Below, one piece after another: positions 884 through 49,692 of a stretch of DNA of 64,000 bases. Origin of the DNA: a virus (lineage: Duplodnaviria > Caudoviricetes); the IMG/VR virus record IMGVR_UViG_3300020576_002947, positions 1 through 64,000 of that record. The stretch is one strand, 5' to 3'. The notes under the pieces are model-generated. The model did no database searches. It was not told the DNA's origin and saw nothing but the letters and a program-made list of their open reading frames with translations. The position numbers and the translations under genes were made by a program. Within the stretch, counting starts at the first letter, position 1, and every line of letters begins with the position of its first letter.

Positions 884-1087
884 ATGGAAAACATACTTGA
901 AGAAAGTCCTATCGGTACACTATTTTTACGGAGTAATTGTATATTAAAACTTACAGCTAGACGCTTTGGTATGGTTACCTTTGTATTAGTTAAAGGTAAG
1001 CCATTTTGGTTTAATGAAAATACCACTTTTACAACCTTCACTCAATTTCATGAGTTTTATCGTTTTGCAGAACTAGTCTGTATCTGA
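884..1087 (+). CDS. hypothetical protein, C-terminal VCI tag
   Basis: ORF ending ELVCI. Confidence 0.75.
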   Translation: MENILEESPIGTLFLRSNCILKLTARRFGMVTFVLVKGKPFWFNENTTFTTFTQFHEFYRFAELVCI

Positions 1088-1088
1088 A

Positions 1089-1403
1089 ATGACTGCTACA
1101 TACGAAGAAATATCAAAAATTTTGAATCTACCTTCTATTGTAACAAGTGCTGATAATCTAAAACATAGCCTAAAAAGAGAAACATTAGAAGATCTAGGCT
1201 ATACAAAAGTAGATTCATCAAACTTAGAATGTTGTAAAGGACGGTATGTTCTGTACACTTATAGTTGGACAGAGCTAGTATTTGTAGAAGAAATTTGTGG
1301 GGATAACTTAAGGGTACATACTATAAAAAGAGATAAAGATACCTACTACACCACTCGTGCAAGTCATATCTTTCTTATAACCCAAGACAGAGTTTGTATC
1401 TAA
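1089..1403 (+). CDS. hypothetical protein (paralog of 1425-1742), VCI tag
   Basis: Shared YEEI..L.LP.I..AD and SWTELV; ends DRVCI. Confidence 0.85.
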   Translation: MTATYEEISKILNLPSIVTSADNLKHSLKRETLEDLGYTKVDSSNLECCKGRYVLYTYSWTELVFVEEICGDNLRVHTIKRDKDTYYTTRASHIFLITQDRVCI

Positions 1404-1424
1404 TAATGTTCTTACAGGCATAGA

Positions 1425-1742
1425 ATGGACCTTAGTTACGAAGAGATTGTAGAATCACTAAAACTTCCTGATATTATTATAGATGCAGATAAAAATATGA
1501 GGCGTATATCCAGAAAAGATCTAATAAATCTTGGATGTGTGCCGATATCGGAAGACCAATTAGATCATTATATAGATCAATATATTATATTCTCTAGTTC
1601 TTGGACTGAACTTGTAAAGCTACAAGGCTATAAGAAAGACAAATCATTCTATTTTTATAGATTAAGAAAAAACATTGCTGATCTATACGCATTCGGATAT
1701 AGTAGCATCTATTCTCTTCCAAAAGACCTAGTATGTATTTAA
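1425..1742 (+). CDS. hypothetical protein (paralog of 1089-1403), VCI tag
   Basis: Paralogy with previous ORF; ends DLVCI. Confidence 0.85.
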   Translation: MDLSYEEIVESLKLPDIIIDADKNMRRISRKDLINLGCVPISEDQLDHYIDQYIIFSSSWTELVKLQGYKKDKSFYFYRLRKNIADLYAFGYSSIYSLPKDLVCI

Positions 1743-1752
1743 CCAAGAAAAC

Positions 1753-1974
1753 ATGACACCTGAACAATGGGACCAACTAAAACCTGGAGATATAGTACGA
1801 AGAACAGATCCTAGAAACCCATCTTCGTACAGAGTTATGGAGGTTAGAGCTTTAAAGAAAACTATAGATTTGTCCCCTGACCTAGGTAAGGAGCATCGAC
1901 TATATCTTGGATGGCAAGGCTCTAAGGATTACTGTCATTTATACGAATTTGAGCACAGAATAGTCTGTATCTAA
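1753..1974 (+). CDS. small MT..LKxGD family protein, VCI tag
   Basis: MTPEQWDQLKPGDIV start; ends RIVCI. Confidence 0.85.
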   Translation: MTPEQWDQLKPGDIVRRTDPRNPSSYRVMEVRALKKTIDLSPDLGKEHRLYLGWQGSKDYCHLYEFEHRIVCI

Positions 1975-1984
1975 AAACAATTTT

Positions 1985-2560: not shown

Positions 2561-2567
2561 TAGTAAC

Positions 2568-2927
2568 GTGAGCATAGAAGAAAATTCTCTTTTATTAGAT
2601 GCTATTGTTAAAGATCTGTATGAATGTAGTTTTCCTATACAACCTAAAGATGGATTTACAGATGAATGGTCTAAGGGTTGGATAGCATTCTTAACAAAAA
2701 GAGGTTTTGTCCTGCTAAAGCAAGGAGCGAAGGCTGATACAGGAGACACTTGTGTTATACTTCGATCTTATCCATTTGTAGGAGTTCAGGTAGGAACTAT
2801 AAGTGGAAACAGAGACAATATATACACAATCTATCATCAAGGTATGAGAATGAAAATTCATTGGTGGCTAAATGATACTTCTATAATACTTATTTATAAA
2901 GGAATTCAAGAAGTAGTATGCGTATAA
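2568..2927 (+). CDS. hypothetical protein, paralog family 2, VCV tag
   Basis: W..FL...GFV...C..L.S.PF.G.Q.G shared with the next two ORFs; ends EVVCV. Confidence 0.8.
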   Translation: MSIEENSLLLDAIVKDLYECSFPIQPKDGFTDEWSKGWIAFLTKRGFVLLKQGAKADTGDTCVILRSYPFVGVQVGTISGNRDNIYTIYHQGMRMKIHWWLNDTSIILIYKGIQEVVCV

Positions 2928-3316
2928 CCCAACCTCCTCATAATATAGTAAGAAATACACATGACTATCTAAAACAACTTGTTTACTACAGTAACCAAAC
3001 AAATCTGTCTCTTCATCCAGATGATTGTGGTGAGGATTGGATAAAAAGCTGGGAATCTTATATATATTCCCTAGGTTTTGTTAAAATTTTAGATGACAAA
3101 GAAGCAAACCATAATGACATATGTATTACTCTAGTCACAAGACCATTTGTGGGTATTCAGATTGGAGTAGTAAGCTGTATTGAGAAAGAAATAGGTGTAC
3201 TAGTATACTTACTTGAGGGTGAGATTTTGAGTAAGAGCAGAGCTTTTATATGGTACTCTAATGCAAACATAGATCTTGTCTATATCCTAAAAGATGCAAA
3301 CAGAGTGTGTATATGA
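2918..3316 (+). CDS. hypothetical protein, paralog family 2, VCI tag
   Basis: Paralogy; ends NRVCI. Confidence 0.8.
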   Translation: MRITQPPHNIVRNTHDYLKQLVYYSNQTNLSLHPDDCGEDWIKSWESYIYSLGFVKILDDKEANHNDICITLVTRPFVGIQIGVVSCIEKEIGVLVYLLEGEILSKSRAFIWYSNANIDLVYILKDANRVCI

Positions 3317-3693
3317 ATGAATTAGGTTCCTATATTGAAAATTATAACTATAACAGTTTAATTAAATGTGTCACCTCTTTCCAAGAAAACCACCCAGTCC
3401 CAAGTAACTTAGATATTCCAAACAATACATGGGATGTCTTTCTTAGAAGTATTGGATTTATTAAAGTTATAGATGAATCTGATACTCTTAATTTACCGTG
3501 TATCATATTACGAAGCCGTCCTAATGATCATGGTGTATTGATTGGTAAGGTTACAGAACAAATCTTTCCTACTCTTATTAGGACCAGTATTTGTCATAGA
3601 AGTGATGGTTATGTACATGAAATGGTATGGAATGTATCATTCGTGCATGATGTATACCATGTTCTAGACACTCAAGCTTTGCCTTGTATCTAG
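3313..3693 (+). CDS. hypothetical protein, paralog family 2, variant tag PCI
   Basis: ATGA overlap start; paralogy; ends LPCI. Confidence 0.8.
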   Translation: MNELGSYIENYNYNSLIKCVTSFQENHPVPSNLDIPNNTWDVFLRSIGFIKVIDESDTLNLPCIILRSRPNDHGVLIGKVTEQIFPTLIRTSICHRSDGYVHEMVWNVSFVHDVYHVLDTQALPCI

Positions 3694-9000: not shown

Positions 9001-9017
9001 AACTACATTAGATATAT

Positions 9018-11939: not shown

Positions 11940-13224
11940 CGCCGTAGTTGCCACAATTACAAATGTTGTCCCTATTGAAGGTAAGGACAAGATAAAGAAA
12001 GCCAAATGTCTTGGCTATACAATCATTGTTGCAAGCACTATCGAAGAAGGAACAAGGGGAGTCTTTTTTGAGAGTGATGGACAACTGAGCCAAGATTTTG
12101 CTACTATTAATGATCTAATCAGACGAAAGGATGAGAATGGTAACGCTGCTGGAGGATTTTTTGAAGAGAATCGAAGAGTCCGAAATCTAAAACTAGGTCA
12201 AGTTGTTTCTGAAGGTTTTTGGACTCCACTAAAGTCCTTCGACTACACAGGATATGATCTAACTAAAGAACCTGACGGGTTCGAATTTAATGAGCTTAAC
12301 GACAGGCCTATTTGTAACAAGTATATTACACCAGCTTCAATGAGAGGAGCGGGTAGAAATAAGGAAGGCAAGGTTAAATTCCTAGAAAACCCCGCTATGC
12401 CTAAGCATATAGAAACTTTAAAGCTAAAGCGTAGCATAGGGAACATTCCTAATGAAGGCTTACTAATTATTACTGAAAAGCTTCATGGAACATCTCACAG
12501 ACTTGCTAAGGCACCTGTAAGATTTGACGTACCTACTACTAAGGTTAAGGAATTCTTCAGAAGACTATTCAGAAAGCCAAAGCAGAGGTTTACTGAGTAT
12601 GTAAGAATAGATGGTTCTAGAAACTTTAGTTGGATCTTCAAAACACCTGAAGAATTTACACACCCATATAAAGACAGTTGTAGGATGCACGCTATACCTC
12701 ACAAGGTAGCCTTGCAACCAGGCGAAGCTATTTATGGTGAGATTGTAGGATATGAGCCTAGCGGCAATCCTATTATGTCAAGACATAACTCTACGTGTTT
12801 AAAGGACAAGCAACTCTTTAAACTGTTTGGAGAGACTGTTATTTATCATTACGGCAATCCTGTTAATGAGTCAACTTTCTATGTTTATCGAATAACAAAG
12901 ACTGACCAAGAAGGTAACACTATTGAACTTACTTGGGATCAAGTTCTTCGAAGAGCTGCTGAACTGGAAATGAAAACTGTTCCAGAACTCGCAAGGATCT
13001 ATAAAACTCAGTATACCTCTAATGATGAAATCTTAAAAACATGTATCGATATCTCTAATGGGCAAAGTAGTTGTTTATCAGATACAACACCAAGAGAAGG
13101 TATTGTATTAAGAACTGAAACCCCTACTCCAAGATTTTTTAAAGTTAAGAGCGATAACTTCTGTATTATGGAAGGACTTGCTAAGGACGATGAAAAGTAC
13201 GTGGATCTAGAAGATACAGAGTAA
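11932..13224 (+). CDS. RNA ligase, DRB0094/Rnl2-like with N-terminal OB-like module
   Basis: N-terminal PIEGKDKI module; motif I EKLHGT, YGEIVG, EGIVLR, FKVKS. Confidence 0.85.
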   Translation: MYNAVVATITNVVPIEGKDKIKKAKCLGYTIIVASTIEEGTRGVFFESDGQLSQDFATINDLIRRKDENGNAAGGFFEENRRVRNLKLGQVVSEGFWTPLKSFDYTGYDLTKEPDGFEFNELNDRPICNKYITPASMRGAGRNKEGKVKFLENPAMPKHIETLKLKRSIGNIPNEGLLIITEKLHGTSHRLAKAPVRFDVPTTKVKEFFRRLFRKPKQRFTEYVRIDGSRNFSWIFKTPEEFTHPYKDSCRMHAIPHKVALQPGEAIYGEIVGYEPSGNPIMSRHNSTCLKDKQLFKLFGETVIYHYGNPVNESTFYVYRITKTDQEGNTIELTWDQVLRRAAELEMKTVPELARIYKTQYTSNDEILKTCIDISNGQSSCLSDTTPREGIVLRTETPTPRFFKVKSDNFCIMEGLAKDDEKYVDLEDTE

Positions 13225-13769
13225 TGCTACATAACCATAAAATCCTATCACCATCTCTACGTGACGACCAACAAGTAGATGCTTGTTATTGCTGTTATAT
13301 ATCAGTAGACCAAAACCTACTTAGTATTCAAGAAGAGATTTATCAAACACTAACAGATAGTGTAGATGACCCTATTCCTTTAATACGTCTTAGAGAAAGG
13401 ACTTACAGTATTTTAAAGTATAGTAAAACAGCTTTAACAAAACATGAAGTATTGTCAAGATTTTTTGGAAAGAAAGGTAAGTGCAATCACGAAGAGATTT
13501 ATGTTGTAACTTTTCAGCTAACTCCTCAAGGTTATGTACCTCTTATAATAGTAAATACTGTACACTCAGAAAGTTTAGCAAATTCAAGTCTATTACTTCA
13601 GTATAAAGACCATATTTCATCATTTCCTTTCGAAACTAAGCATACTAGACTATCTAACATATTCATACCAAAAGAATGGTTACCTAGTACTAAACTAGGA
13701 ATGTTTCTAAGAGTAGAAGATGCTAAAGACTTCATCAAAAGTCTACCATCAACATACGTTTGTGTTTGA
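13224..13769 (+). CDS. hypothetical protein, VCV tag
   Basis: ORF ending TYVCV. Confidence 0.75.
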   Translation: MLHNHKILSPSLRDDQQVDACYCCYISVDQNLLSIQEEIYQTLTDSVDDPIPLIRLRERTYSILKYSKTALTKHEVLSRFFGKKGKCNHEEIYVVTFQLTPQGYVPLIIVNTVHSESLANSSLLLQYKDHISSFPFETKHTRLSNIFIPKEWLPSTKLGMFLRVEDAKDFIKSLPSTYVCV

Positions 13770-13780: not shown

Positions 13781-14347
13781 ATGATACCAAATCGAGTTAT
13801 CTTTGAAGATATTTCATCAGTTACTATTAGCCCCTTAGCTTCTATAGGGACTCCTGCAGAACACTATGATATTACTTTAGAAAATGCAGATCAGTCTGAC
13901 GAAACTAAAGTCATTATTCATAGTGGAGTACGGGTTAATGAATTCGTTACTATAAATTGCGGCCTAGATAGAAATACAGTAATAGGCAAAAACTCCTACC
14001 TTTTAGCAAAGTCTCATGTTGGTCATGATTCAATTCTGAAAGAAGGAGTTGTTCTATCTACAGGTTCTATTGTAGGAGGGCGTTCTATCATTGGAAATCA
14101 TTGCTACCTAGGATTAAATGCCAGTACTCACCAAAGAGCTATACTTGGAGATTATTGTATCCTAGGTGCAAACTCCTTTTTTAAAGGGGAGTCTCCTGCC
14201 GGAATTACATGGGCAGGTGTACCAGCCAAACCAATTAAAGTTAATATTGTTGGTATAGAAAGACACTGTCCTGAAAATGAAAGAGAAGCCGTCATCACTA
14301 TTGCAGAGAATTTTATCACTAATTACAAGAAAGAAAGACTCACCTAA
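13781..14347 (+). CDS. hexapeptide-repeat acyl/acetyltransferase (LpxA-like)
   Basis: Left-handed beta-helix repeats, HVGHD, GVPAK. Confidence 0.88.
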   Translation: MIPNRVIFEDISSVTISPLASIGTPAEHYDITLENADQSDETKVIIHSGVRVNEFVTINCGLDRNTVIGKNSYLLAKSHVGHDSILKEGVVLSTGSIVGGRSIIGNHCYLGLNASTHQRAILGDYCILGANSFFKGESPAGITWAGVPAKPIKVNIVGIERHCPENEREAVITIAENFITNYKKERLT

Positions 14348-14630
14348 GACAGGTGTAAAATTCTTTTCACCAAGAAAGAAGTCTTCTGAATTACCAAGCC
14401 TTTCATTAACTACCTGGACTAAAGTTCCAGGTAGTCTTGGTTACTTACGTATTTTAAATAGTGAGGAAGCTATTTTCTATCATCCTTTTAATACTAAAGT
14501 TTATTATATTAAGAAGTCTATTTGGATCTATGGAGAAGAATTAGATCTAAATTATCCAGGACTAGAAGAGAAGGTACAAAGTATCTTTCGTCCTAATGAG
14601 GTACCTCCTAGTAACAGAGTGTGTATATAA
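14277..14630 (+). CDS. hypothetical protein, VCI tag (start uncertain)
   Basis: ORF ending NRVCI. Confidence 0.65.
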   Translation: MKEKPSSLLQRILSLITRKKDSPKTGVKFFSPRKKSSELPSLSLTTWTKVPGSLGYLRILNSEEAIFYHPFNTKVYYIKKSIWIYGEELDLNYPGLEEKVQSIFRPNEVPPSNRVCI

Positions 14631-16207: not shown

Positions 16208-16208
16208 A

Positions 16209-18162: not shown

Positions 18163-18372
18163 ATGACTAGAGAAGAGTTTAAGAATTTATCTATCGGAGA
18201 TATAATCAGAGGAGTAGGTTTAGAGTATGATTACGAAATTACTGGAAAAGTTTCAAACTACTACAGTATAAGAGTAGTAGGTACTTCAAAAGACCTAGTA
18301 GGTTGTGGAGCTGCCTTACCTGACAAATGGACCTTAGTAAGACCTAAAAATTCTAGTTTGGTGTGTATATGA
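18163..18372 (+). CDS. array protein 1 (VCI)
   Basis: Family motif plus tag. Confidence 0.85.
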   Translation: MTREEFKNLSIGDIIRGVGLEYDYEITGKVSNYYSIRVVGTSKDLVGCGAALPDKWTLVRPKNSSLVCI

Positions 18373-18566
18373 CTAACGAAGAATTCTTAAAACTAAAAGT
18401 AGGAGATATTATCAAAGGAGATAGTATAGGAGAGTATCTAATTATTGAACAAAGAGGTATTAGTCGTTTTACAGTTAAAAGAATAACTGATGGGAAAATA
18501 GGAGGAGCTTGTTATCCTACTGGTTGGACCTATATAAGAGCCAGTAAAGATGTAGTTTGTATATGA
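18369..18566 (+). CDS. array protein 2 (VCI)
   Basis: Family motif plus tag. Confidence 0.85.
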   Translation: MTNEEFLKLKVGDIIKGDSIGEYLIIEQRGISRFTVKRITDGKIGGACYPTGWTYIRASKDVVCI

Positions 18567-18784
18567 CTAGAAATCAGTTTGAATTACTAGAAGTTGGTGA
18601 TATTGTTCAAGGAACAAGTACACCTATACTTACTATTGTTGAGAAGATGCTAGCTCCATCCGATGGATTCTTGTTTAATACTAAGTATGTATATAGCGGT
18701 AAAGATGATTGTGATAAGAATTATTACATGTTTGCTCCTGGATACTGGAGTTTAATAGAAAGTAACCATAAAGTCTGTATATGA
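18563..18784 (+). CDS. array protein 3 (VCI)
   Basis: Family motif plus tag. Confidence 0.85.
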   Translation: MTRNQFELLEVGDIVQGTSTPILTIVEKMLAPSDGFLFNTKYVYSGKDDCDKNYYMFAPGYWSLIESNHKVCI

Positions 18785-19029
18785 CACAAGCACAATTTGA
18801 ATCACTTAAACCTGGTGACCAAATAGTAACCAATTGTCAAATAGGCTTTTGGCCTAAAGGTCTTAAATTTACTATTAATAGTAAATTTAATGAAAAAAGG
18901 CAGTTACCTAAACATTTTAATACTTATGCATATCTATGTACAAAAGAAGGTGATAAAGTAGCTAATTGTGTTATAAGAGATGTTGATTCTCCACTATTTG
19001 ACTTTGTACCTGATAGGGTCTGCATATGA
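18781..19029 (+). CDS. array protein 4 (VCI)
   Basis: Family motif plus tag. Confidence 0.85.
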   Translation: MTQAQFESLKPGDQIVTNCQIGFWPKGLKFTINSKFNEKRQLPKHFNTYAYLCTKEGDKVANCVIRDVDSPLFDFVPDRVCI

Positions 19030-19229
19030 CACAGCAAGAGTTCAATCATCTTAATATTGGTGATATAATTACTGTTATTGGTGGAAAGCAAAAACTTATT
19101 ATCGTTTGTATTGACAAACCTGGTTACTATAAGGCAGATATTTGTGGTAAAGAAAACAAAAAACCTGTATCAATATTTATTGCTAGTAGGTGGCATCTTC
19201 ATGAAGCAGTACTAAAGGTTTGTGTATGA
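19026..19229 (+). CDS. array protein 5 (VCV)
   Basis: Family motif plus tag. Confidence 0.85.
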   Translation: MTQQEFNHLNIGDIITVIGGKQKLIIVCIDKPGYYKADICGKENKKPVSIFIASRWHLHEAVLKVCV

Positions 19230-19453
19230 CTGAGTTGTTATGGAGAAGCTTAAAAATTGGAGATGTTATTGTCTTTACACTGCAACCAAGGGTAATCTAT
19301 AAAATCAATAGTATATTTTATAATGAAGAGTCTCCACTTCCTGGATATAACCTAACTAAAATTACACCAGAAGCTAATACTGGAGTTAATGTTAACAAAG
19401 CTGTAACTCCTCATTACTGGACCTTATATAAGCATCATTTAGTATGTGTGTAA
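19226..19453 (+). CDS. array protein 6 (VCV)
   Basis: Family motif plus tag. Confidence 0.85.
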   Translation: MTELLWRSLKIGDVIVFTLQPRVIYKINSIFYNEESPLPGYNLTKITPEANTGVNVNKAVTPHYWTLYKHHLVCV

Positions 19454-19463
19454 GAATAGTACA

Positions 19464-19673
19464 ATGACTAAAGCCCAATTCAATCGTCTTAAAATTGGTG
19501 ATGTTATCAATGGTAGGTGTGGTGAAACAATTACTATTTCTGTAGTAAGACCTCCAAACAAAGTATTCTCACACCAAACTTATACTGGTTTAACTAGTGA
19601 AGACTTTACTATAAACGCATTTGCTTATGGTTATTGGACACTAGTATCTAATTCTCCTGTGGTGTGTGTATAA
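19464..19673 (+). CDS. array protein 7 (VCV)
   Basis: Family motif plus tag. Confidence 0.85.
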   Translation: MTKAQFNRLKIGDVINGRCGETITISVVRPPNKVFSHQTYTGLTSEDFTINAFAYGYWTLVSNSPVVCV

Positions 19674-19677
19674 GCTA

Positions 19678-19890
19678 ATGACAAAAAAAGACTTTTTCCA
19701 ATTAGATCTTGGGGACACACTAGGAAGTTATAGAAAAGACTTTAAAGATAGTTTTGAGGTGATTAAAAAACTCGGTCAATCATACTATGTCTTAAGAAGA
19801 AAGTCAGATAACAAAACTGTAGCTTGTTTTGATCATAGAAACTGGTTCATAATTAAAAAAAAGGGTATCTCTTTTCTTGTTTGTATTTAG
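19678..19890 (+). CDS. array protein 8 (VCI)
   Basis: Family motif plus tag. Confidence 0.85.
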   Translation: MTKKDFFQLDLGDTLGSYRKDFKDSFEVIKKLGQSYYVLRRKSDNKTVACFDHRNWFIIKKKGISFLVCI

Positions 19891-19901
19891 AGAAAACGAC
19901 T

Positions 19902-20102
19902 ATGACAGAAGAAGAATTTTCCAAGCTACAAGTTAATGATATTATCTCTGCGTTTCCAGGAGTAGAGTTTATAATTACTTCTATAAAAGCCCCATCTCAG
20001 TATATAGTAAGAAGGTTTGAAGGAAATGGGCGTATGACCGAAGCTAATTTTCCTCCGGGTTGGACTTATGTTAGAAATATCAACCATCAAGTCTGCATAT
20101 GA
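19902..20102 (+). CDS. array protein 9 (VCI)
   Basis: Family motif plus tag. Confidence 0.85.
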   Translation: MTEEEFSKLQVNDIISAFPGVEFIITSIKAPSQYIVRRFEGNGRMTEANFPPGWTYVRNINHQVCI

Positions 20103-20293
20103 CACAAGCTGAGTTCAATAAACTAGAAGTTGGTGATGTTATCAGAGGAATTAGTGGCCTAGGACCTCGAACAATTGTTGAAATTATAGAATTTGCAAAG
20201 TATAAAATAGAAAGACCTGATGGTTCTTATGCTATAGCTTATACAGCAGGTACCTGGACCTTAATAAGTAGAAAATCTTCAGTCTGCATATGA
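20099..20293 (+). CDS. array protein 10 (VCI)
   Basis: Family motif plus tag. Confidence 0.85.
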   Translation: MTQAEFNKLEVGDVIRGISGLGPRTIVEIIEFAKYKIERPDGSYAIAYTAGTWTLISRKSSVCI

Positions 20294-20505
20294 CAGTAAA
20301 AGAATTTAGTGAACTTAAAGTTGACGATGAAATAGTAACTTGCTTTGACGCAGGTGCTTGGAATAAAAACACCGTCCTAACAATAACACAAGTTACAGGA
20401 AATTCTCGTTATCGTGTTAGAATAGGAGATAGACATTATGTAGGTGACATCACTTGTGCAAATTTTTATAGACTACTTGAAGTTACAGACAGAGTGTGCT
20501 TATGA
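20290..20505 (+). CDS. array protein 11 (VCL)
   Basis: Family motif plus tag. Confidence 0.85.
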   Translation: MTVKEFSELKVDDEIVTCFDAGAWNKNTVLTITQVTGNSRYRVRIGDRHYVGDITCANFYRLLEVTDRVCL

Positions 20506-20717
20506 CCAATGAGGAATGGGATAGTTTAGAAGTTGGAGACCTTATTAGAGGAAGTAGCTTTTCTATCCCCCATACTATTATCAAGAAAATTAGTAAAAAC
20601 ACTCTTACTAAGACAACAAAATACTCTTATAGACTATCTCCTGATGGAGCAGCTAGTTTACCTCCACTGTGGACTATTATTAAAAAAAAGAATTCTAGTA
20701 ATGTGGTCTGTATATGA
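20502..20717 (+). CDS. array protein 12 (VCI)
   Basis: Family motif plus tag. Confidence 0.85.
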   Translation: MTNEEWDSLEVGDLIRGSSFSIPHTIIKKISKNTLTKTTKYSYRLSPDGAASLPPLWTIIKKKNSSNVVCI

Positions 20718-20929
20718 CCCATAACACTTGGGAATCTTTAAAAATTGGCGATAGAATTAAAAACATAGATACTCATTTAGAGTATGCAATAATAGAAAAG
20801 AAAAAGTCAACTATTCTATACCCATCTAAATTCTATTATTACATACTCTCCCCTTGGAATAATAAGGAAGTAGCAATGACCCCAAAATACTGGTTTCTTA
20901 TTGATGAAGAAAGTTTGGTTTGTATATGA
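20714..20929 (+). CDS. array protein 13 (VCI)
   Basis: Family motif plus tag. Confidence 0.85.
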   Translation: MTHNTWESLKIGDRIKNIDTHLEYAIIEKKKSTILYPSKFYYYILSPWNNKEVAMTPKYWFLIDEESLVCI

Positions 20930-21138
20930 CCTACAAGCAGTGGAGATCTTTAGAAGTTGGTGACGTTATTAAGGGGAATAGTTTAAATTATGAATCTACT
21001 ATTACTGAAAAGTACCCCTCAAGGCATCTAAATGATCCTACGATAGTATTCGCATATAGCTTGTATCCTTCAGGACATGCAGTAATTCCTGAACTTTGGT
21101 CTATTGTAAGAAAGAATAAAGACATGGTTTGTATATGA
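20926..21138 (+). CDS. array protein 14 (VCI)
   Basis: Family motif plus tag. Confidence 0.85.
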   Translation: MTYKQWRSLEVGDVIKGNSLNYESTITEKYPSRHLNDPTIVFAYSLYPSGHAVIPELWSIVRKNKDMVCI

Positions 21139-26679: not shown

Positions 26680-26686
26680 GAACAAA

Positions 26687-28265: not shown

Positions 28266-28266
28266 C

Positions 28267-32373: not shown

Positions 32374-32979
32374 ATGAATAATTTAAATGATATTAAACAA
32401 TCGTTAGATGCACCGCTTCTAACTACCGAAGTAAAGGTCAAGCCAGGCTCTAAAGGCGCTCGATACATTAGTGGAGAAACCGCTTTACGTGCAGCCAATA
32501 GAGTCTTTGGTTTCGAGAACTGGTCTTACGAAATTACAGATCAAAAGATCTTTCCGAATGAATCAGATCTACTTAAGCCCATATTTATTTCTAGGGTAAA
32601 ACTAACTGTAAACATCCCAAATCACGGCACAGTCGTACATGAGGATGTTGGAACAGGTATTGGTTCTACTTCATACGTAGGTCCTAATATAGACGTTGCC
32701 GCTAAGGGCAGTGTAACTGATGCTATTAAGAGATGTCTTAGAGCTTTTGGTGATCAGTTTGGATTAGTTCTATATGATCCTCAGAGTGATAATCTGATCG
32801 ATCCTGATACAGCAAAGACCAAGTTGCTAGAATTTCTATTGGAATTGGCTGGAGATAAAGCTGCTACAAAGACTATTTGGAGTAAGCTTCTTGAGATCTA
32901 TGACCAAAAAGAACTTATTGAAATGTACTTATATGCTCCTCAAGAACTAAAGAGTATCGTTTCCTCATTTAATAATTAA
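32374..32979 (+). CDS. Rad52/Rad22-family ssDNA annealing protein
   Basis: YISG...ANRVFGFENWS, EDVG.G, K.SVTDAIKRCLR.FG. Confidence 0.9.
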   Translation: MNNLNDIKQSLDAPLLTTEVKVKPGSKGARYISGETALRAANRVFGFENWSYEITDQKIFPNESDLLKPIFISRVKLTVNIPNHGTVVHEDVGTGIGSTSYVGPNIDVAAKGSVTDAIKRCLRAFGDQFGLVLYDPQSDNLIDPDTAKTKLLEFLLELAGDKAATKTIWSKLLEIYDQKELIEMYLYAPQELKSIVSSFNN

Positions 32980-36894: not shown

Positions 36895-36971
36895 AAATAG
36901 AATTGAAGGGTAAGGCCGTCCCTCAAGGACTTATAATCCCTTCTCTTGTTCGGTGAAAACCGGAGACGACT

Positions 36972-37364
36972 ATGCTAGTCAAGTACACTGTTACGGCCCA
37001 GAAGGGCACCGCACGTTCGACATTCAGTGGCGAAACTGAGGTTCAGGCTGCAGGCGACAACGCCGCTGCCCTGTCCGATGAGCTCGCTACTCTCATGAAT
37101 CTCAAGAAGAACTATCCTGGTTCTTGGACTCCTACCAATCAATCCCGCGCCAACGAGCTCATGAAGCTGATCCAGGCCGCCAACAACGGTGGTGGATCAA
37201 TCGAGGCTCAGGCCCGAGACGCCGTCATCAGCACCCTGGTCAACAACCATGGGTTCTCCACCAACGGATCGGCAGAAGCCTGGTACGTTAACCCTCAGCA
37301 CCTCTCCGTTTACAAGAGCGGCGACAGCGTGATGGTTACCGGCGCTGCTTCCTGGGGCCTTTAA
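36972..37364 (+). CDS. putative ubiquitin-like (ThiS/MoaD beta-grasp) protein with helical insert
   Basis: C-terminus WYVN......KSGDSVMVTGAASWG-L matches the VN...GD.V......G pattern; two N-terminal strands; E1 gene two ORFs downstream. Confidence 0.55.
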   Translation: MLVKYTVTAQKGTARSTFSGETEVQAAGDNAAALSDELATLMNLKKNYPGSWTPTNQSRANELMKLIQAANNGGGSIEAQARDAVISTLVNNHGFSTNGSAEAWYVNPQHLSVYKSGDSVMVTGAASWGL

Positions 37365-37382
37365 GGCTCTAACGACAAGTAT

Positions 37383-37510
37383 GCTGTCAGCCCTCAAAAG
37401 CTGACAGCTCGATTTTCTTTCCTGGACGACGAGTGGGATAAAAAGGGGGCAGACCATTGGGGTGGGTCTGCCCCCGCGACGAGTCACCCCTCTACTGACG
37501 CAATTGTCAG
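37383..37510 (+). promoter_or_regulatory. GC-rich multi-hairpin intergenic element
   Basis: gctgtcagc/gctgacagc, gggggcagacc/ggtctgccccc, ctgac/gtcag stems. Confidence 0.55.
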
Positions 37511-37519
37511 ACAGCTACA

Positions 37520-38320
37520 ATGCTTCCTGAATTCTCCACAAGGCATAAAGCTATTCCTAGCGGTACTTGGGTTAACCATTACTGCGATTTATCAGATCCT
37601 TCCAAAGAAACCATCAAGTTGATGAAGACTGCGGAGGAATATTTCAATCAATCTATCAAAGATCTTTGGGGTCTCCCAGTTACAAAGTTTGGGTGTCGAG
37701 ACCTTGTCTATTTCTCTGACATTGGCACTGTTGACAGCATGGCTCACATGCTCAACATTAACAATGGTAATCAGGTTGAGATTATCCAGCAGCACCTTGA
37801 CATGACCAAGCCTTGGATTCTTCCTAAGCTTGAGAAGTTTTGGAAAGCTCGTGGTAAGACTGAGCTGGATTTCTTTAACAAGGTTCTCACTACGGGCCAG
37901 TATTCCTCATTTGGCGCACCCCGCCTTATGTGGGCTAATAGATCATTCTATGGCAGTGTTAAGATTGGTGGAAACAATCTTGATCTGTACTTTATGAATA
38001 AGGAAATGTTGCTAGATACCCTGACCTTTTTTAGGACAGACTGGGCAACTGAATTATTCCAAGAGCAGATTAAGCCTTTTGAATGGTTCTATACTGTTAA
38101 CAACGTTCAGTGCGAAAGGACTTGTATTGGCAATGATGGTAATAAGATTCAGAGTCTTCAATCTCCTGCGTCGAGACCTATTGATCTCCAGCTTTGGTTG
38201 GCATCATGGGGCACGAACATGCTGAAGGCTACCTTTAACCATAACAACACAAAAGTTGTCCAGTATAACAGTAATCAGGCTAAGGTCACTGAGGCCTTGC
38301 TTGCAGGACTGAAAAAGTGA
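37520..38320 (+). CDS. putative prokaryotic E2-like conjugating enzyme
   Basis: NNV....TCIGN...W..SW.T resembles the N....g.vC.Gn catalytic motif of Prok-E2 families; overlaps the E1 start (GTGA). Confidence 0.45.
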   Translation: MLPEFSTRHKAIPSGTWVNHYCDLSDPSKETIKLMKTAEEYFNQSIKDLWGLPVTKFGCRDLVYFSDIGTVDSMAHMLNINNGNQVEIIQQHLDMTKPWILPKLEKFWKARGKTELDFFNKVLTTGQYSSFGAPRLMWANRSFYGSVKIGGNNLDLYFMNKEMLLDTLTFFRTDWATELFQEQIKPFEWFYTVNNVQCERTCIGNDGNKIQSLQSPASRPIDLQLWLASWGTNMLKATFNHNNTKVVQYNSNQAKVTEALLAGLKK

Positions 38321-39102
38321 GACATGTTATTGTTGTCGGAGCCGGGGCGGTCGGCTCCGCCTTTATCCAAGAGCTTTCAAAGTTCTGTCTTTCAAACCAT
38401 ATCCATACTACAGCCCATCTTTATGATTTTGATGATATTGAAGAACGAAACTGTGCTGCACAGTGCTTCGATGCCAGAGAGATCGGAGGATTAAAAGCTG
38501 TTGTTTGTTCTGAGAAGTTCTCAAACGAATACCTTACTATTACCCCATACAAGGAGTATGTTGACGCTAAAGTTATCGAGTCCTGGAAAACTCTTGATTG
38601 GTATGACAATGATATAGTCATTGTCGATGGTGTTGATAATCTAAAAACAAGAAAGCTGCTTTGGATGGAAGGCTTTATGTGTGACTTCAAGGTCATGCAT
38701 CTTGCCCTATCTGCCGAAGGTTTTGGCCTTGTTAACTGGAACTTCGGCACAGACAATACCTATTGCTATGACTTTAGCATTATCGGTGAGGATGAAATCG
38801 AGAAGAGGGATGAAGCTGCAAAGAACGCTGAGAAGCTTCCTCCTTGTGAATTGAACAAGCATCGTCACATGATGTTTAGTGTTGGTTTATCAGGAACCCA
38901 CTCTCTTATGAACTACTGGGGTATTCCAGACGAATGTCTTATTACCAAGTTGCTGGAAGAGCATGGTGTAAGATTTATCCCTAAACTTCTTTTCTCTTTC
39001 AGAACAACAATGGATCGAATTGAACTACTTTTGGGAGAAGGTCAAGTTATCAATACTGAACCTACAGAGCCAAATGGCGAAGAAGCAGCAAAGGAGAATT
39101 AA
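38317..39102 (+). CDS. ThiF/MoeB/E1-family adenylyltransferase
   Basis: GAGAVGS, DFD.IEERN..AQ, G.K, VDGVDN..TR, candidate catalytic Cys in LPPC. Confidence 0.92.
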   Translation: MRHVIVVGAGAVGSAFIQELSKFCLSNHIHTTAHLYDFDDIEERNCAAQCFDAREIGGLKAVVCSEKFSNEYLTITPYKEYVDAKVIESWKTLDWYDNDIVIVDGVDNLKTRKLLWMEGFMCDFKVMHLALSAEGFGLVNWNFGTDNTYCYDFSIIGEDEIEKRDEAAKNAEKLPPCELNKHRHMMFSVGLSGTHSLMNYWGIPDECLITKLLEEHGVRFIPKLLFSFRTTMDRIELLLGEGQVINTEPTEPNGEEAAKEN

Positions 39103-39109
39103 GAAAGAG

Positions 39110-41734
39110 ATGTCCCACTGGGCAGGAAACAACAATAATAACTATAACGGGGACAACAGAATCACGGTCGTCGGTCTTGACAAAACTGTTCTTGGTGAAG
39201 TCTTATGCTTTCCTTATGAATTCAACAACATTAAAGCAGTTTTCCAAGAAGAAGACACCAGGGTTCCTGGTGTCTACAAGGAACTCAATGCCAAGCATAT
39301 TGAGATCGTTATGCCTGCTGACTACATCCAGTGGAAAGCAAAGTCAGGCAAGACGGTTGCTATGTGCGCCTTTAATGCTAGCATGGGATTTATCAGCTGC
39401 AATCTGGGCAAACGACTAGATGGAGCTGATGAAGCCTGGTACAAAGCTATTCCTCAGACACATGCTGAGGGATTAAGAGAGGGGGCAACCTTCGATGTTA
39501 TTCAGGAACTGGTCCGACCTTACGGTATCGGCATTTCTGAAATCTGGGTCAGGAGCGACAAGTTCCTTAATCCAGATCTTGACAAGTGGAGGGAGTATCT
39601 CCCAGCTAACCCACTTTTTAACTTTTCTGATCCTAATGGAAGCTCTGCAGGTCTTACTGACAAGGAAGCTCTTGCAAACCCATTAGCTGATATGTTTGTT
39701 GATGAGAAAGATACCTGGAGAATGCACAGGATCAAGGGGCATGAGTCATTGGACGGCCCCCTTATCTATATGCGTGGTGGTGCTTCTGCAGCAGGTGGTG
39801 GTGGTCATGCTACCTATATCGGTCCTAGGTGGTCAGATAAGAACTTCGATTATGCCATTCGTCTTGATCACCTCTCCAATATCAATTACATAAAGGTACC
39901 TGATCCTATTGACACTACGGTGGAAATGGATATCAACTTGCCTGAGTCTTATCTGGTTAAGTCTACCGACGGGAATGTAAAGGTGAAAGACCTATACCCA
40001 AAAGGAGTGACTTATTCCCACAACAATCCTTATCAGAGTGGTGGGACGAACAGCTCGGCACACACGGTTACTATTTCTAGCACCGCGGATGAGGTAATAA
40101 AATTTATGTTTACTGCCGCTCCTGGTGCAGGAGTTTATTCGTCTGACTATAACAAGATGAAGTCTATGTTTTCTCAAGCGTTTAAGGGGGATTTCGAAGC
40201 TGTCTTCAGCATCGATAAACCTAGTTCATATACCAAGGACTTTTTCCCTCTTATAGCATCATTGAATAAAATGTTTCTTCTGCCTACTGATTTAGACCAG
40301 CTTGAGAAAGCATCGGCTATTTTCAGTAAGCAGCCTGCTGATCTAGGAGACTTTAGACTTAGTCCTGAAACCAAGGAAAATCCATACCCAACTCAGATTA
40401 GGGCTTGGATGGACAAGGTTAAGACTACAATTGACAAGAAGGAAATGTCATTGTATGGCTTATGGTCAGTCTATGTCTTCTTTAATATGTACTTCAATGC
40501 TCTTACTGAGGCTAGCATTAAGAAACTTTATGGAGATAAGCTTGGCCTTATGAGAGTTCTCTCAACATGGGCAATAGACTATGCTCTTAAAGTAGAACTT
40601 GCTGCTGGTGTCGAAGCAAAAGTAAAACTCATTACTGTTGAACCAGCAGAAAAGAAAGTTGCTACTATTGCTAAGAAATCAGACTTCCTTGCTATTGGAG
40701 GAATTAAGACTGCGGCTGAATTCAATCAGAGGCTTACACAATTAGCTGGAGAGGGTGTCATTCAGGAACATCTTTCCAAGACTGATATTGCAAGCTTTAC
40801 CATGATTGATGACGCTATCAAGGCTGTTCGAACCAAGTTGCTGAAGAACAAGTCTGCTGATATAGTACCTGAGTGTATTCTTGGTCAAGACTTCGGGGAG
40901 TATGATCTCATCATTTCCAAATGTGTTGAAGGCCGAAGAAAGCTAACTCGTATTGCGAGTGAAAAGCTTTTTGAGTCTATGCAATCTGTTTGGAAAGGCA
41001 AGAATGACATGCCTCCTGCTGACCTGTGTACTTTCCAGGCAGCTATGCTTATTACTAGCTGGTTCTGCAAGCCAGCTTTTGCTCATGCTGTATCCCTGTA
41101 CAGTTTCTTTGCGACAAAAACGCAAAGCACTGCTATTGTGAAGGACTACACTGAAACAAAGCTTGGGCATAACGACATGTTCAAGGCTTTTGTGGGAGTA
41201 CTTCGATCTATCCACACTGCTTACAAGGATGGCACTCTTGGACCTACTCTAGATCCAGGCATCAAGCTGTCCCAAGAAACTGAGCAGGTCCTTAGGATCT
41301 ATATGGTTCCTCCTTCTCCTGAGGTTGCAAAACTTCTTGAAGCTGTTATTCAGAACAGCGAAGAAGGCTATATGAGGTGGGTTGACAAGCAGGTCCTTGC
41401 TGACTGGAAACTCACTGGACCTCAGAACTTTATCGAACTTGATTGCAAGAAAGGAAACTTCTGGAACATTACCAATAGTAGTCCTTCCGATGCGATCTTC
41501 TTCCTTACTCTCTATGCCGCAGTAGTTCTTGCAGTTGATCAGAATGAGAATGAAGAAAGCCTTAGGCTCTTCACCCATAGTCTGTTCACTGAGTACGAGA
41601 ACTGCTTGGTTAGGGATGTCACCGAAGATATTTCTAAGGTTATCTTCATTGAGGATACTATCGAAACAGTAGCCGCCTTCCCCTGGAGTGTCTACGGCTA
41701 CATTACCGCACTTCTCAACAAGAAGGTTCGGTAG
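39110..41734 (+). CDS. large hypothetical protein (874 aa)
   Basis: Long ORF 8 nt after the E1 stop; no recognised motif. Confidence 0.85.
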   Translation: MSHWAGNNNNNYNGDNRITVVGLDKTVLGEVLCFPYEFNNIKAVFQEEDTRVPGVYKELNAKHIEIVMPADYIQWKAKSGKTVAMCAFNASMGFISCNLGKRLDGADEAWYKAIPQTHAEGLREGATFDVIQELVRPYGIGISEIWVRSDKFLNPDLDKWREYLPANPLFNFSDPNGSSAGLTDKEALANPLADMFVDEKDTWRMHRIKGHESLDGPLIYMRGGASAAGGGGHATYIGPRWSDKNFDYAIRLDHLSNINYIKVPDPIDTTVEMDINLPESYLVKSTDGNVKVKDLYPKGVTYSHNNPYQSGGTNSSAHTVTISSTADEVIKFMFTAAPGAGVYSSDYNKMKSMFSQAFKGDFEAVFSIDKPSSYTKDFFPLIASLNKMFLLPTDLDQLEKASAIFSKQPADLGDFRLSPETKENPYPTQIRAWMDKVKTTIDKKEMSLYGLWSVYVFFNMYFNALTEASIKKLYGDKLGLMRVLSTWAIDYALKVELAAGVEAKVKLITVEPAEKKVATIAKKSDFLAIGGIKTAAEFNQRLTQLAGEGVIQEHLSKTDIASFTMIDDAIKAVRTKLLKNKSADIVPECILGQDFGEYDLIISKCVEGRRKLTRIASEKLFESMQSVWKGKNDMPPADLCTFQAAMLITSWFCKPAFAHAVSLYSFFATKTQSTAIVKDYTETKLGHNDMFKAFVGVLRSIHTAYKDGTLGPTLDPGIKLSQETEQVLRIYMVPPSPEVAKLLEAVIQNSEEGYMRWVDKQVLADWKLTGPQNFIELDCKKGNFWNITNSSPSDAIFFLTLYAAVVLAVDQNENEESLRLFTHSLFTEYENCLVRDVTEDISKVIFIEDTIETVAAFPWSVYGYITALLNKKVR

Positions 41735-46730: not shown

Positions 46731-47038
46731 TGATCTTTGCTCATATTGGCAAGGTCATAGATATACAAGACAGAGAGTTTAAATGCAGAGATATTACTAC
46801 CGATGAAGTGTTTAGTCTTCATTGGACAGGAAAAGAATCTATTGCTGACTTACAAGATCAAACTTGTATTATCTATGGTGAGGTAAAAAGAGGTAAGTTC
46901 AATGCTGTACGTCTAGATATGAACAGATTTCTTACACCACTTTATGAAAACCATTTGGTTACAAATGTAATCAGTGCCCTTAAAGACCTTGAAGATAATC
47001 CATTCGACGACTTATACGAGAAATATTCCAGACTATGA
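46730..47038 (+). CDS. hypothetical protein (OB-fold-like)
   Basis: Beta-rich ORF preceding the helicase. Confidence 0.65.
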   Translation: MIFAHIGKVIDIQDREFKCRDITTDEVFSLHWTGKESIADLQDQTCIIYGEVKRGKFNAVRLDMNRFLTPLYENHLVTNVISALKDLEDNPFDDLYEKYSRL

Positions 47039-48141
47039 TTTCTAATAACCCGTACGCACAAGACAATACGAAAAATGTGCAACAAATAATCTCTGCAGAT
47101 AATGGACAGTTTTATGAAAACTATCTTAATGAAGTAGAGAAACTTGAAGACAAGAACAAGAAGAGGAAAGGTCCATCACTACAATGGATCGTAGAACACG
47201 AGCCTATTACTGGCCCCTTCCTGCCCTTTGTAGGGGTCTCTTCGTTATGTAAGGCCCTAAGTGACTACGACTCTGGTTTGCTTCTAATAGCAGGCCATGC
47301 TAACGCTGGTAAGAGTACTTTCATGGTTCATACCATGATGGACTTAATTTTTAATCCATTAAATACAGATCTAGTTGTTATTGACCTTTCTCTTGATGAC
47401 CCAATGGGTAAGAGATGGGAGCAGTATGTAGCTAATAGATCTGGGCTTTGTTATAGTGATATCCACCAAATGGGTGCAATGAGCCCTTATGTTGTGAAGT
47501 CATATTACCACGCAAGAGACTCTATTCTGGAAATGATTAAGCAAGGCAGGTTCTGGCCTTTAAATGCTTATCACAGCATTAGAGACGTAAAGGGTGATTA
47601 TAGGACCATGAACATTGGTACCTATACCTCCTTTGAGAGGCTCTTAAAGGGAGCAAGAGAGAAGTTTCCTAACCCAGATACTAAGATTGTAATCTTCGTT
47701 GATGCTTGGCAGGATGTTAAACTCTCTGCTACTGAAATGTACCAAATAGATGAGTACATTAGGGAACTTGCACAGTTAGCTCATAAGCTTGAGATAATGA
47801 TTGTAGGATCAGCCCACTTTAGAAAGCTAGGTGCTAAGTCCGAACCTGAGCCCGAAGACATCAGAGGATCATTAGAAGTTCACTACGCTGCTTCAGCAAC
47901 GTTCATTCTAAGAAACGACTATAAAGAAAATCCTGACAACTTCCTTAGGGCTGAAGAGGATGACTTTACAGGACCAATTATCAGACTAGAGGTACCAAAG
48001 AATAAAGTATCTATCGAAGATAGAACTATGTTCTATGGATTAGAGTCTGGCAGATGTCAACTATATCCATTCACAAGTAGTCAGTACGCTAAGTATGTTG
48101 ACTCTTGGGAAACACTTAAGAAGGACCGTCGTAAGAGATAG
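47035..48141 (+). CDS. DnaB-like replicative helicase
   Basis: GHANAGKST, IFVD, AH..K, DIRGS, KNK. Confidence 0.88.
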   Translation: MISNNPYAQDNTKNVQQIISADNGQFYENYLNEVEKLEDKNKKRKGPSLQWIVEHEPITGPFLPFVGVSSLCKALSDYDSGLLLIAGHANAGKSTFMVHTMMDLIFNPLNTDLVVIDLSLDDPMGKRWEQYVANRSGLCYSDIHQMGAMSPYVVKSYYHARDSILEMIKQGRFWPLNAYHSIRDVKGDYRTMNIGTYTSFERLLKGAREKFPNPDTKIVIFVDAWQDVKLSATEMYQIDEYIRELAQLAHKLEIMIVGSAHFRKLGAKSEPEPEDIRGSLEVHYAASATFILRNDYKENPDNFLRAEEDDFTGPIIRLEVPKNKVSIEDRTMFYGLESGRCQLYPFTSSQYAKYVDSWETLKKDRRKR

Positions 48142-48143
48142 TT

Positions 48144-48584
48144 ATGTACACAATCTATAAGAAAGATCTATTACCTAGTGAAGATTTGTTAGAAATAATC
48201 TTCTCAATTAATCATACAACAGCAATAAAGAAACTTAGAGAGATTAGAGACAATCTAGTTTCTTTAACCAAAGATGTCATCTTAGATAGTGAGGATTGGG
48301 CTTTGCATGAAAGGCCTGAAGGAACTCCTATTGAGATCAATATTACTTATGACAACTATATTGCATATGCTTCAGGACTTCTAGCTTTATGTGAAGCACT
48401 AGAAGATCCTCTCTATAAAGCTGAATTTGAAGCTGCTGGGGATAACCTAGCTGAGAACGTCAAAATTACTCAGAAGGAAAAGGAGGTCTTTGCTAGATCT
48501 GCTGTGTCATCAGTAAAGTCAGCTGCAAAGCTACTATCAGCTAGAGTTAGTATTCTAAGATCAGGTAAAGATGTATTTAGATAA
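48144..48584 (+). CDS. hypothetical protein
   Basis: ORF. Confidence 0.75.
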   Translation: MYTIYKKDLLPSEDLLEIIFSINHTTAIKKLREIRDNLVSLTKDVILDSEDWALHERPEGTPIEINITYDNYIAYASGLLALCEALEDPLYKAEFEAAGDNLAENVKITQKEKEVFARSAVSSVKSAAKLLSARVSILRSGKDVFR

Positions 48585-49109
48585 ATGAAAACAGTTACTA
48601 GGTTTGATCAGAGTTATTTTCTACCCTCACTCTCAAATGAGTATAGTAATTTTACTGTTTATTATCGTCAATCTGATATAGATAAACAGAAGAAGCTAGT
48701 TAAAGTAAATAATATTGCTGCCCCAGCAGCAGGTCATATGCATCCTTATCTTCATATTAAAGTTCTAGATGAAAATAAATCTTTGTACCCAGTTTATAAA
48801 CATCTTGAAATGCACACATGCCACTATGAGTTTGCTTTGAACGAAAGATTTTTATTTATTAAGAATAAAATAAAGAATCTTGGTGTTGCTGGTTTAAGTG
48901 TTAGGATCTATTGTTCTCTGATTCATATCCATAGTCGGTATAGAGATATGGACTATGCTTGTATTGACCTAGACAAAGGGATCATTACTTATTACAAGCC
49001 TGACAAAGAGACGCCAAGATCAAAGTATATATTCAGTTTATTAGACGGAGTCTTAGAAGAAGCTAAAAATATTTTTGGCTATAACTACTGTACTATAGTA
49101 TGTATGTAA
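48585..49109 (+). CDS. hypothetical protein, variant tag VCM
   Basis: Starts MKTVTR, ends YNYCTIVCM. Confidence 0.75.
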   Translation: MKTVTRFDQSYFLPSLSNEYSNFTVYYRQSDIDKQKKLVKVNNIAAPAAGHMHPYLHIKVLDENKSLYPVYKHLEMHTCHYEFALNERFLFIKNKIKNLGVAGLSVRIYCSLIHIHSRYRDMDYACIDLDKGIITYYKPDKETPRSKYIFSLLDGVLEEAKNIFGYNYCTIVCM

Positions 49110-49110
49110 G

Positions 49111-49692
49111 ATGAAAACCTTAACTCGAGATCTACCTAATGATATTAATACTAACTTTTTTGAAGGCTTTTCTTCTACTATTGTAATAGGCACTAACAAT
49201 TATACAACTAAACAACTAAGAAATTGGAATTATAATGGTAAAGGCTTAGTAAGTGCAGTTTATAGTTATAATACAGGTATTTATTTAAATGATGCAAATC
49301 CAATTACTACGATGGGTTATCTTAGTAAAGTTCATACAAATCCTTCTGCTTCTCATAACTTTACCGAAGGTTACGTTTTTACAAACAGGCTGGCAAAGTA
49401 CCTAAAAGAAAACAAAGATGTTTGTCAGAAATTAGGATTAAAAACTACAGACCTGCTAGTTCAATCCAGATCTGTTTATAACAAAGGCCTTAAAGATAAT
49501 TTTGTAATAGTATATAAAAATAATTCAGCAAGACAATCATTATTAGTTTTTGAATCAAATAAGAGAACAGTAAGACTAATAGTTACTGACGAGTTACATA
49601 AAAAGTATAAGGATGAGTTAGAAAAAATACTTGACCAAATAATAGGATTAACTAAATACCTTTATTCTTACTCAGCGATAGTTGCAATATGA
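49111..49692 (+). CDS. hypothetical protein, degenerate tag VAI
   Basis: Starts MKTLTR, ends YSYSAIVAI. Confidence 0.75.
   Translation: MKTLTRDLPNDINTNFFEGFSSTIVIGTNNYTTKQLRNWNYNGKGLVSAVYSYNTGIYLNDANPITTMGYLSKVHTNPSASHNFTEGYVFTNRLAKYLKENKDVCQKLGLKTTDLLVQSRSVYNKGLKDNFVIVYKNNSARQSLLVFESNKRTVRLIVTDELHKKYKDELEKILDQIIGLTKYLYSYSAIVAI

Follow-up and report, generated by a model that had tools for sequence, protein, structure and literature searches.

The window analysed here is the first 64 kb (positions 1 to 64,000) of the 239,691-bp virus record IMGVR_UViG_3300020576_002947 (genome G000, estimated to be 94% complete), in which dozens of small genes end in the same C-terminal tripeptide, Val-Cys followed by one further, mostly aliphatic residue (V-C-x, hereafter the tag). 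Genes for a tail sheath, portal and terminase are present among the ~341 called genes of G000 and define it as a myovirus, with a capsid protein 22-27% identical to those of the Bacillus phage 0305phi8-36/Acinetobacter phage ME3 group. Strains of this phage are contained in freshwater and wastewater metagenomes, and mid-distance relatives (capsid 52-55%) were found as short contigs only; no close polymerase match exists among cultured phages, protein-seeded scans of viral and genome collections returned nothing close, and no RNA holder of the phage is listed. In the window, 38 plus-strand open reading frames (ORFs) end in V-C-x, comprising 25 VCI, eight VCV, two VCL and one each of VCR, VCQ and VCM, and the related endings PCI, LCI and VAI close the ORFs that end at 3693, 25028 and 49692, respectively, which reproduces exactly the counts of the initial annotation of this DNA. 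On the minus strand V-C-x occurs on one ORF only, of 34 amino acids (aa). The tagged and related genes, including members of the main LKxGD family described below, are as follows.

884..1974, plus strand: four tagged ORFs, all VCI
884-1087, plus strand: singleton, VCI
1089-1403 and 1425-1742, plus strand: paralogue pair, both VCI
1753-1974, plus strand: LKxGD member, VCI, followed by tRNA-Tyr with no overlapping gene
2568-2927 (VCV), 2918-3316 (VCI) and 3313-3693 (PCI, a degenerate tag), plus strand: trio of 119-132 aa paralogues
13224..13769, plus strand: 181-aa singleton, VCV (ICV in a second strain)
14277..14630, plus strand: 117-aa singleton, VCI
15241-15474, plus strand: LKxGD member, VCI
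15471-15833 and 15830-16207, plus strand: pair, VCI and VCV
16200-16535, plus strand: singleton, VCI
18163..21968, plus strand: uninterrupted run of 18 LKxGD genes of 64-82 aa, all V-C-[I/V/L], mostly ATGA-coupled
24729..25028, plus strand: 99-aa ORF, LCI, doubtful member
26431..27189, plus strand: three longer LKxGD members, VCI (26679), VCI (26941) and VCL (27189)
27781..28763, plus strand: four LKxGD members, VCR (28008), VCV (28265), VCV (28515) and VCQ (28763), with an additional tagged paralogue in this region of the second strain
48585-49109, plus strand: 174-aa ORF, VCM
49111-49692, plus strand: 193-aa ORF, VAI, probable tag variant

Triplet-shuffled windows contain a mean of 0.4 V-C-x ends. 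Genome-wide, the tag closes 48 genes (14%, about one protein in seven), ten of them outside the window at genome 90.1-90.5, 226.2-226.9, 232.4-235.0 and 238.9-239.6 kb, when 0.28 would be expected from residue frequencies (Poisson P ~1e-88, a value inflated by paralogy, with 17 carriers still falling outside the main family). The best pair of C-terminal positions is Val(-3) with Cys(-2) in G000, at ~1e-86, as compared to only ~1e-4 in ME3, 0305phi8-36 and the near-complete relative G003 (Poisson). Thus, the count of terminal tripeptides against a shuffled null that had been suggested as a check lies far above chance in G000, and no such enrichment is seen in its relatives. The ending is V-C-[I/V/L] in 45 of the 48 carriers, with Cys the most enriched residue, and the same motif is not enriched within proteins (11 seen, ~15 expected). 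Six non-Cys V-x-I ends, three of them adjacent, are found in the same gene clusters as the tagged genes when 1.5 are expected, and the VAI (two genes) and VMI (three adjacent genes, genome 87 kb) endings may be tolerated variants of the tag. The latter three are short ORFs at genome 87.0-87.9 kb (L001 7014-7916), near VAI and VCI genes, ending in Leu-Val-Met-Ile after acidic residues, possibly a second version of the tag. PCI is a degenerate tag within its trio. About one x-C-aliphatic end without Val is expected by chance, so that LCI at 25028 is doubtful and may be due to chance; its ORF is PTH2-like by eye with no Pfam match, and the G003 homologue lacks the terminal Cys. A Ro60 gene ending in CCI (genome 237049) may likewise be a chance case, and its 119 more distant homologues are all without Cys at -2.

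Selection on the terminal peptide

All four Val codons are present in the 48 tags (17/12/11/8), TGT and TGC are used 35 and 13 times, and all three stop codons occur, so that the codon diversity first noted in the window is confirmed over the whole genome. Information content amounts to 2.0 bits at the first two positions of both the Val and the Cys codon and falls to 0.05 bits at Val position 3, with Cys position 3 being T or C only. The distance from tag to stop is constant, with the next ATG lying anywhere from -5 to +58, and for half of the tags there is an ATGA overlap with the next start. The tag is also retained where a tRNA or a gap follows and on genes that stand alone; the V-C motif is not enriched before start codons without a preceding stop, and no motif lies upstream of the first genes of arrays. 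Because the conserved bases are those that determine the residues, and their spacing is kept to the stop and not to the next start, selection acts on the tag peptide at the free C-terminus. Extension of the tag by read-through of TGA or TAG is ruled out, as all three stops occur and interchange between strains.

Comparison of G000 with the second strain (SRR25018320; 29 orthologue pairs) revealed four synonymous, two Val-to-Ile and no Cys changes in the tag, with 15 non-synonymous versus five synonymous changes in the linker preceding it. This check of substitutions in the last codons, which the initial annotation had called for, agrees with the codon pattern but has low power and is weak alone (tag versus linker, Fisher P=0.14). 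In the gene bodies, pN/pS (the ratio of non-synonymous to synonymous polymorphism) is 0.38 for tagged genes, versus 0.13 in small genes without a tag and 0.05 in large ones; tagged bodies thus change at about three times the rate of other small genes, yet are constrained. At the nucleotide level, GTG and GTC together account for 23 of the 48 Val codons in the tag versus 22 of 247 in the bodies of the same genes, and Val codon use is more even in the tag (P=0.0025 after control for context). As a control, the LKxGD homologues of a separate phage (L008) share Leu-Gly-Gly near their ends, which corresponds to the Shine-Dalgarno sequence of the next gene and whose distance to the stop varies, a caution for any finding of an end tag. 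For the tag itself, a Shine-Dalgarno by-product as the main cause is ruled out by the fixed stop register and the codon-degenerate conservation; the Shine-Dalgarno signal of G000 genes is weak and purine-rich.

The tag-stop-start junction is at the same time a repeat of 11-14 nt at which whole genes are gained or lost.

20698..21138, plus strand: junctions at which whole genes have been gained or lost, with the breakpoint pairs 20708/20921 (11 shared bases) and 20915/21125 (14 shared bases)
32374..32979, plus strand: Rad52/Sak-like single-strand annealing protein, not tagged

In each of two other samples one complete gene is absent, its two ends lying within such junctions, a third strain has three genes replaced by a new tagged paralogue exactly at the 20717 junction, and further new tagged paralogues were seen in strains. 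Misjoining by the assembler at these sites is unlikely, as the repeats are shorter than the assembly words. A search with the junction DNA pattern returned 31 loci, none with two tagged ORFs. The junction DNA explains the mobility of the genes, but not why only the residue-determining bases are conserved. Hence, the original view that selection falls on the peptide rather than on the DNA is upheld by the codon pattern, the stop register and the strain changes, with the qualification that the DNA of the junction has a part of its own as the breakpoint of gene gain and loss. Rad52-like recombinases have been linked to relaxed homologous recombination in phages (PMC3945230), and the Rad52/Sak-like protein is a candidate for the agent of this recombination.

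Carrier families and relatives

About 31 of the 48 carriers constitute a single family, whose members are 64-97 aa long, begin with a helix and have an LKxGD motif and, late in the sequence, a Trp, and in which the groups at 18-22 kb and 26-28 kb are joined at 96% HHalign probability. The only invariant columns of its alignment are the Val and Cys of the tag, and all 25 called genes that match the profile are tagged. With 24-25 profile matches in G000 and none in the near-complete relatives G002 and G003 or in the cultured lineage members ME3 and 0305phi8-36, the many divergent copies in one lineage represent a lineage-specific expansion of paralogues. It resembles the expansion of ~35 zinc ribbons in the jumbo Bacillus phage G (PMC7824862) in that ~31 paralogues of one small domain are found in a large myovirus, but differs in that no common terminal tag spanning other families is part of what that source describes for phage G. 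The remaining 17 carriers fall into five small families and six singletons. These have no database annotation, and with the tail left out neither sequence nor profile comparison relates them to the main family or to one another. The trio at 2568..3693, with N-terminal helices and a beta-rich domain, has no homologue beyond this phage lineage. The earlier statement that the tag joins families sharing nothing thus stands for detectable sequence similarity, and has to be tempered by the common descent of about two thirds of the carriers and by a possible common fold, as several of the smaller families show by eye a similar five-strand pattern and may share a small barrel with the LKxGD proteins.

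LKxGD bodies have no sequence match in Pfam, PHROG or the PDB. The AlphaFold model of this family is of low confidence (predicted local distance difference test, pLDDT, 58.7), as is a second model (pLDDT 47.5), and fold searches with these low-confidence models gave nothing clear; the VIA rows for the LKxGD model list the EF-P N-domain (Z 3.6, root-mean-square deviation 2.4-2.6, 47-50 residues aligned) and Tudor domains (Z 3.4-3.5), mixed with unrelated rows. A two-copy complex prediction of an LKxGD member scored 0.09, which is evidence neither way. A hydrophobic segment is found in one of 48 carriers versus 28 of 136 controls (P=0.001), and the reader of the tag is therefore probably cytoplasmic. 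Carriers have isoelectric points from 4 to 10 and sit among tRNA, RNA-repair and nucleotide-metabolism genes, on the strand opposite to the morphogenesis genes. Between the last predicted strand and the tag lies a polar linker whose length differs by several residues. None of the polymerase, RecA-like, RNA polymerase-like and ligase ORFs ends in V-C-x, in accordance with the initial remark that core replication enzymes lack it, and genome-wide the structural, portal and capsid genes lack it as well.

When the LKxGD profile without its tail was searched in 1.8 billion proteins, the homologues of this lineage were found to be tagged and others not. As some outside homologues stop 3-5 residues after the Trp strand and others carry unrelated tails, the tail is an add-on to the LKxGD domain. 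G002 and G003, whose capsid proteins are 33-34% identical to that of G000 and whose structural genes are syntenic with it, show neither VCI enrichment nor an LKxGD family; in the accessory region, each carries an expanded family of small proteins of its own. In G002 it consists of ~30 proteins of ~100 aa (10.8-12.9, 15, 26.6-31.1 and 46.6-49.4 kb; L011-L013) with variable fronts and a common C-terminal beta module ending in hydrophobic-Glu-Ala/Pro-Ile, which by eye appears to be the last strand of that module and not a free tail. In G003 it comprises proteins of 55-85 aa with Leu-Glu-Glu-Phe/Tyr near the C-terminus (~16-32 kb and 64-66 kb; L038-L041). ME3 and 0305phi8-36 have no enriched C-terminus.

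A candidate shared reader and its rivals

The tripeptide would label the C-termini of a whole set of accessory proteins that are small, soluble and quick to evolve. With a probability of about three in four, one partner binds the Val(-3), the Cys(-2), the aliphatic end and the carboxylate, while the variable bodies bind differing, probably host, targets. A shared reader is the simplest explanation, and to this extent the proposal of a sorting or handling signal with a single reader is retained. The most plausible candidate for this partner, at less than even odds, is an AAA+ protease or unfoldase, either of the host ClpX/ClpC/FtsH type or a phage AAA ATPase with its HEXXH-VWA neighbour, in which case the tag would limit the lifetime of host-takeover proteins or bring them together with their bound targets to the protease. 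New genes might acquire the tag by short-homology recombination at the junction, perhaps via the Rad52-like protein. More doubtful is an antibody-like repertoire, in which ~50 small binders with fast-diversifying surfaces would be shuffled as cassettes at the junction encoding the three-residue handle, and the handle would bring the caught host protein to one protease or conjugation machine.

The nearest likeness is to the C-terminal degradation signals of Clp proteases, such as the tripeptides AAL, VTL, VTK, ETV and LPF of Streptococcus mutans (PMC10782952) and the ssrA-like and MuA-like C-termini recognised by E. coli ClpXP (PMC8138137, PMC9382460). Like the tag, these degrons place three nonpolar or small residues at a free C-terminus and are portable, VTL resembling VCL and VCI; a signal at the free C-terminus on an accessible tail is what the fixed register and the variable polar linker provide. 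They differ in that none of the degrons described in these sources has a Cys, and the phage tag, on 14% of genes, is far more uniform; degradation is here a proposal. At genome 68.3-71.0 kb (L003 4264-6980), G000 has the gene of an AAA ATPase and after it that of a DUF2201-type HEXXH-VWA protein, a candidate chaperone or protease pair; GroEL/GroES and other AAA proteins are also encoded. A precedent for steering a host AAA+ protease from a cluster of small accessory genes is the host-takeover module of phage SPO1, whose Gp53 is an adaptor-like protein of host ClpCP, but a single protein with no shared tag (PMC6873191).

Several observations weigh against this reading. The tag matches none of LAA, AVAA, AAL, VTL, VTK, ETV, LPF and the MuA end, with no Cys at -2 among the C-degrons that the above sources describe, and it is less degenerate than these, as Cys is found in 48 genes versus five Ala or Met variants; such strictness would suit a tighter binding pocket or a role for the thiol. 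In the 94% complete genome no ClpP was found, and G002 has a homologue of the HEXXH-VWA protein yet no VCI ends. Two thirds of the carriers are paralogues, so that common ancestry accounts for part of the count, and the strain comparison has the low power given above.

Ligands of PDZ class II end in hydrophobic-x-hydrophobic-COOH, a pattern that V-C-[I/V/L] fits, the Ala and Met variants included. However, no PDZ domain (PF13180) was found in G000, and the PDZ protease Prc/Tsp is periplasmic (PMC9382460), whereas the carriers look cytoplasmic. Of the initial suggestion of a degron or a PDZ class II ligand, the free C-terminal position agrees with the former and the residue pattern with the latter, while neither ClpP nor a PDZ domain was found in the phage itself. 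Overall, the tag corresponds in sequence to no described signal; its manner of working would be that of the known short labels at protein ends, from which it departs in defining features. In agreement with the initial annotation, no account of a phage system with this tag was found in the literature searched, most subscription journals being outside the search.

Among the rival explanations, an adaptor library on a phage hub, with variable bodies binding host targets and the tag docking on a phage protein, is unlikely. One such protein would belong to the ubiquitin-like machinery at 37-42 kb, with the carriers serving as substrate receptors do on an E3 ligase.

36972..41734, plus strand: ubiquitin-like protein, 266-aa ORF, ThiF/E1 and 904-aa ORF, none tagged

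The content of guanine plus cytosine is raised to 42-46% over this operon (window 36115-41734), and the E1 has no plasmid or phage match. A constant tail on a variable body and the lineage specificity of the tag would suit a co-evolving phage reader, and the operon is found in both near-complete relatives, each with its own expanded small family, that of G002 having ~30 proteins with a common ending. E1-activated ubiquitin-like substrates carry a C-terminal Gly. The tag ends in Ile, Val or Leu, not Gly, and the E1 has its own evident substrate, since in three genomes the ubiquitin-like protein terminates in Trp-Gly plus no more than one residue (Trp-Gly-Leu in G000; Trp-Gly-Leu, Trp-Gly-Lys or Trp-Gly across all three). 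Moreover, the ubiquitin-like, E1 and large-ORF genes are kept in G002 (53.7-58.8 kb) and G003 (43.0-48.6 kb), both without the VCI tag, so that docking on the E1/E2 operon, as initially proposed, is not supported. The G002 ending appears by eye to be a strand of its domain rather than a free tail, no PDZ domain was found in the phage, and no DNA enzyme is tagged. A mechanistic parallel is offered by T4 gp43, gp33 and gp55, which dock on the clamp by an interchangeable C-terminal motif on a variable linker, shared by unrelated proteins and not conserved family-wide (PMC2988020). These are, however, three replication and transcription clients with an acidic-hydrophobic motif, as compared to 48 small proteins with no such enzyme among them.

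Quite unlikely, too, is a signal for capsid loading and ejection, by which the carriers would be packaged and injected as counter-defence factors in the manner of T4 internal proteins. The T4 capsid targeting sequence is N-terminal and is cleaved off by the prohead protease, whereas the tag is C-terminal, three residues long and on no head protein. The likeness lies in one short targeting peptide as the only common feature of the internal proteins (IPI-IPIII) of T-even phages, which are small, diverse, rapidly changing and act in counter-defence (PMC3012670), and the G000 carriers are likewise small, soluble and hypervariable. Against this stand the absence of the tag from structural, portal and capsid genes, the location of the carriers opposite to morphogenesis genes, the spread of their isoelectric points, and cultured ME3 and 0305phi8-36 with no enriched C-terminus.

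It is distinctly improbable that all carriers belong to one small beta-barrel superfamily whose sheet, within a protein or between paralogues, is completed by the tripeptide. The size of the LKxGD family, the five-strand pattern of smaller families and the strand-like ending in G002 would be consistent with this, but outside homologues end at the last strand or with unrelated tails, linker length varies, no profile similarity between families remains after removal of the tail, and the ORF at 48585-49109 gives a low-confidence Atlas model like small alpha/beta domains, not a barrel.

Cys chemistry, with the tail as a site of lipid, thioester or disulfide formation or as a metal ligand, is very unlikely. 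The Cys is unchanged between strains and is the most enriched residue, and both a HEXXH metallopeptidase-like protein and an E1 are encoded; on the other hand, Val-Ala-Ile and Val-Met-Ile ends occur in the same clusters and no modifying enzyme was recognised in the genome. In CaaX prenylation the Cys is fourth from the end, whereas in the tag it is second. Least probable of all is a DNA or RNA element, either a recombination boundary or a translation-coupling signal with the peptide as by-product. Breakpoints in the junction, ATGA overlaps, the Leu-Gly-Gly case and the shifted Val codon use would fit it, but conservation has a period of three and leaves the third base of the Val codon entirely free, genes that are isolated or precede a tRNA or a gap still have the tag, and the motif is neither enriched before starts without a stop nor present upstream of first array genes.

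Few accessory genes of large phages have a known function, and a label of three residues that is under selection in 14% of the genes sets apart a functional class among them, as well as providing a simple handle for finding the reader. Should the tag be a degron or adaptor handle, it would explain the timing or aiming of host-takeover proteins by the dozen in a phage, and could serve as a minimal portable tag. The spread of such a label is illustrated by the junction, because the sequence encoding it is the cassette boundary, in what is so far one strain group.

Other features of the genome

An RNA-repair set extends over window 1-31800 and genome 232-238 kb, comprising tRNAs, a CCA enzyme, two RNA ligases, RlaP, HAD phosphatases and Ro60; the nearest PDB match of the CCA enzyme is 4wby (E 1e-19), which is uninformative on the host. 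A tRNA with a CUA anticodon, a possible amber suppressor, lies at 23986-24058, with genes reading normally under code 11 and 59 genes ending in TAG. A selenocysteine tRNA match in Rfam at 9017-9105 (49.1 bits versus a threshold of 47, missed by ARAGORN) may point to a host with selenoproteins. Long C homopolymer runs at window 17-40 and genome 239610-239640, near both contig ends and the first with a tRNA beside it, may be an assembly artefact or a terminus feature. Finally, G000 encodes a class II ribonucleotide reductase with an intein carrying a LAGLIDADG domain, and the polymerase of a close strain has a faint intein match (window 33078-36026, 57631-61221).

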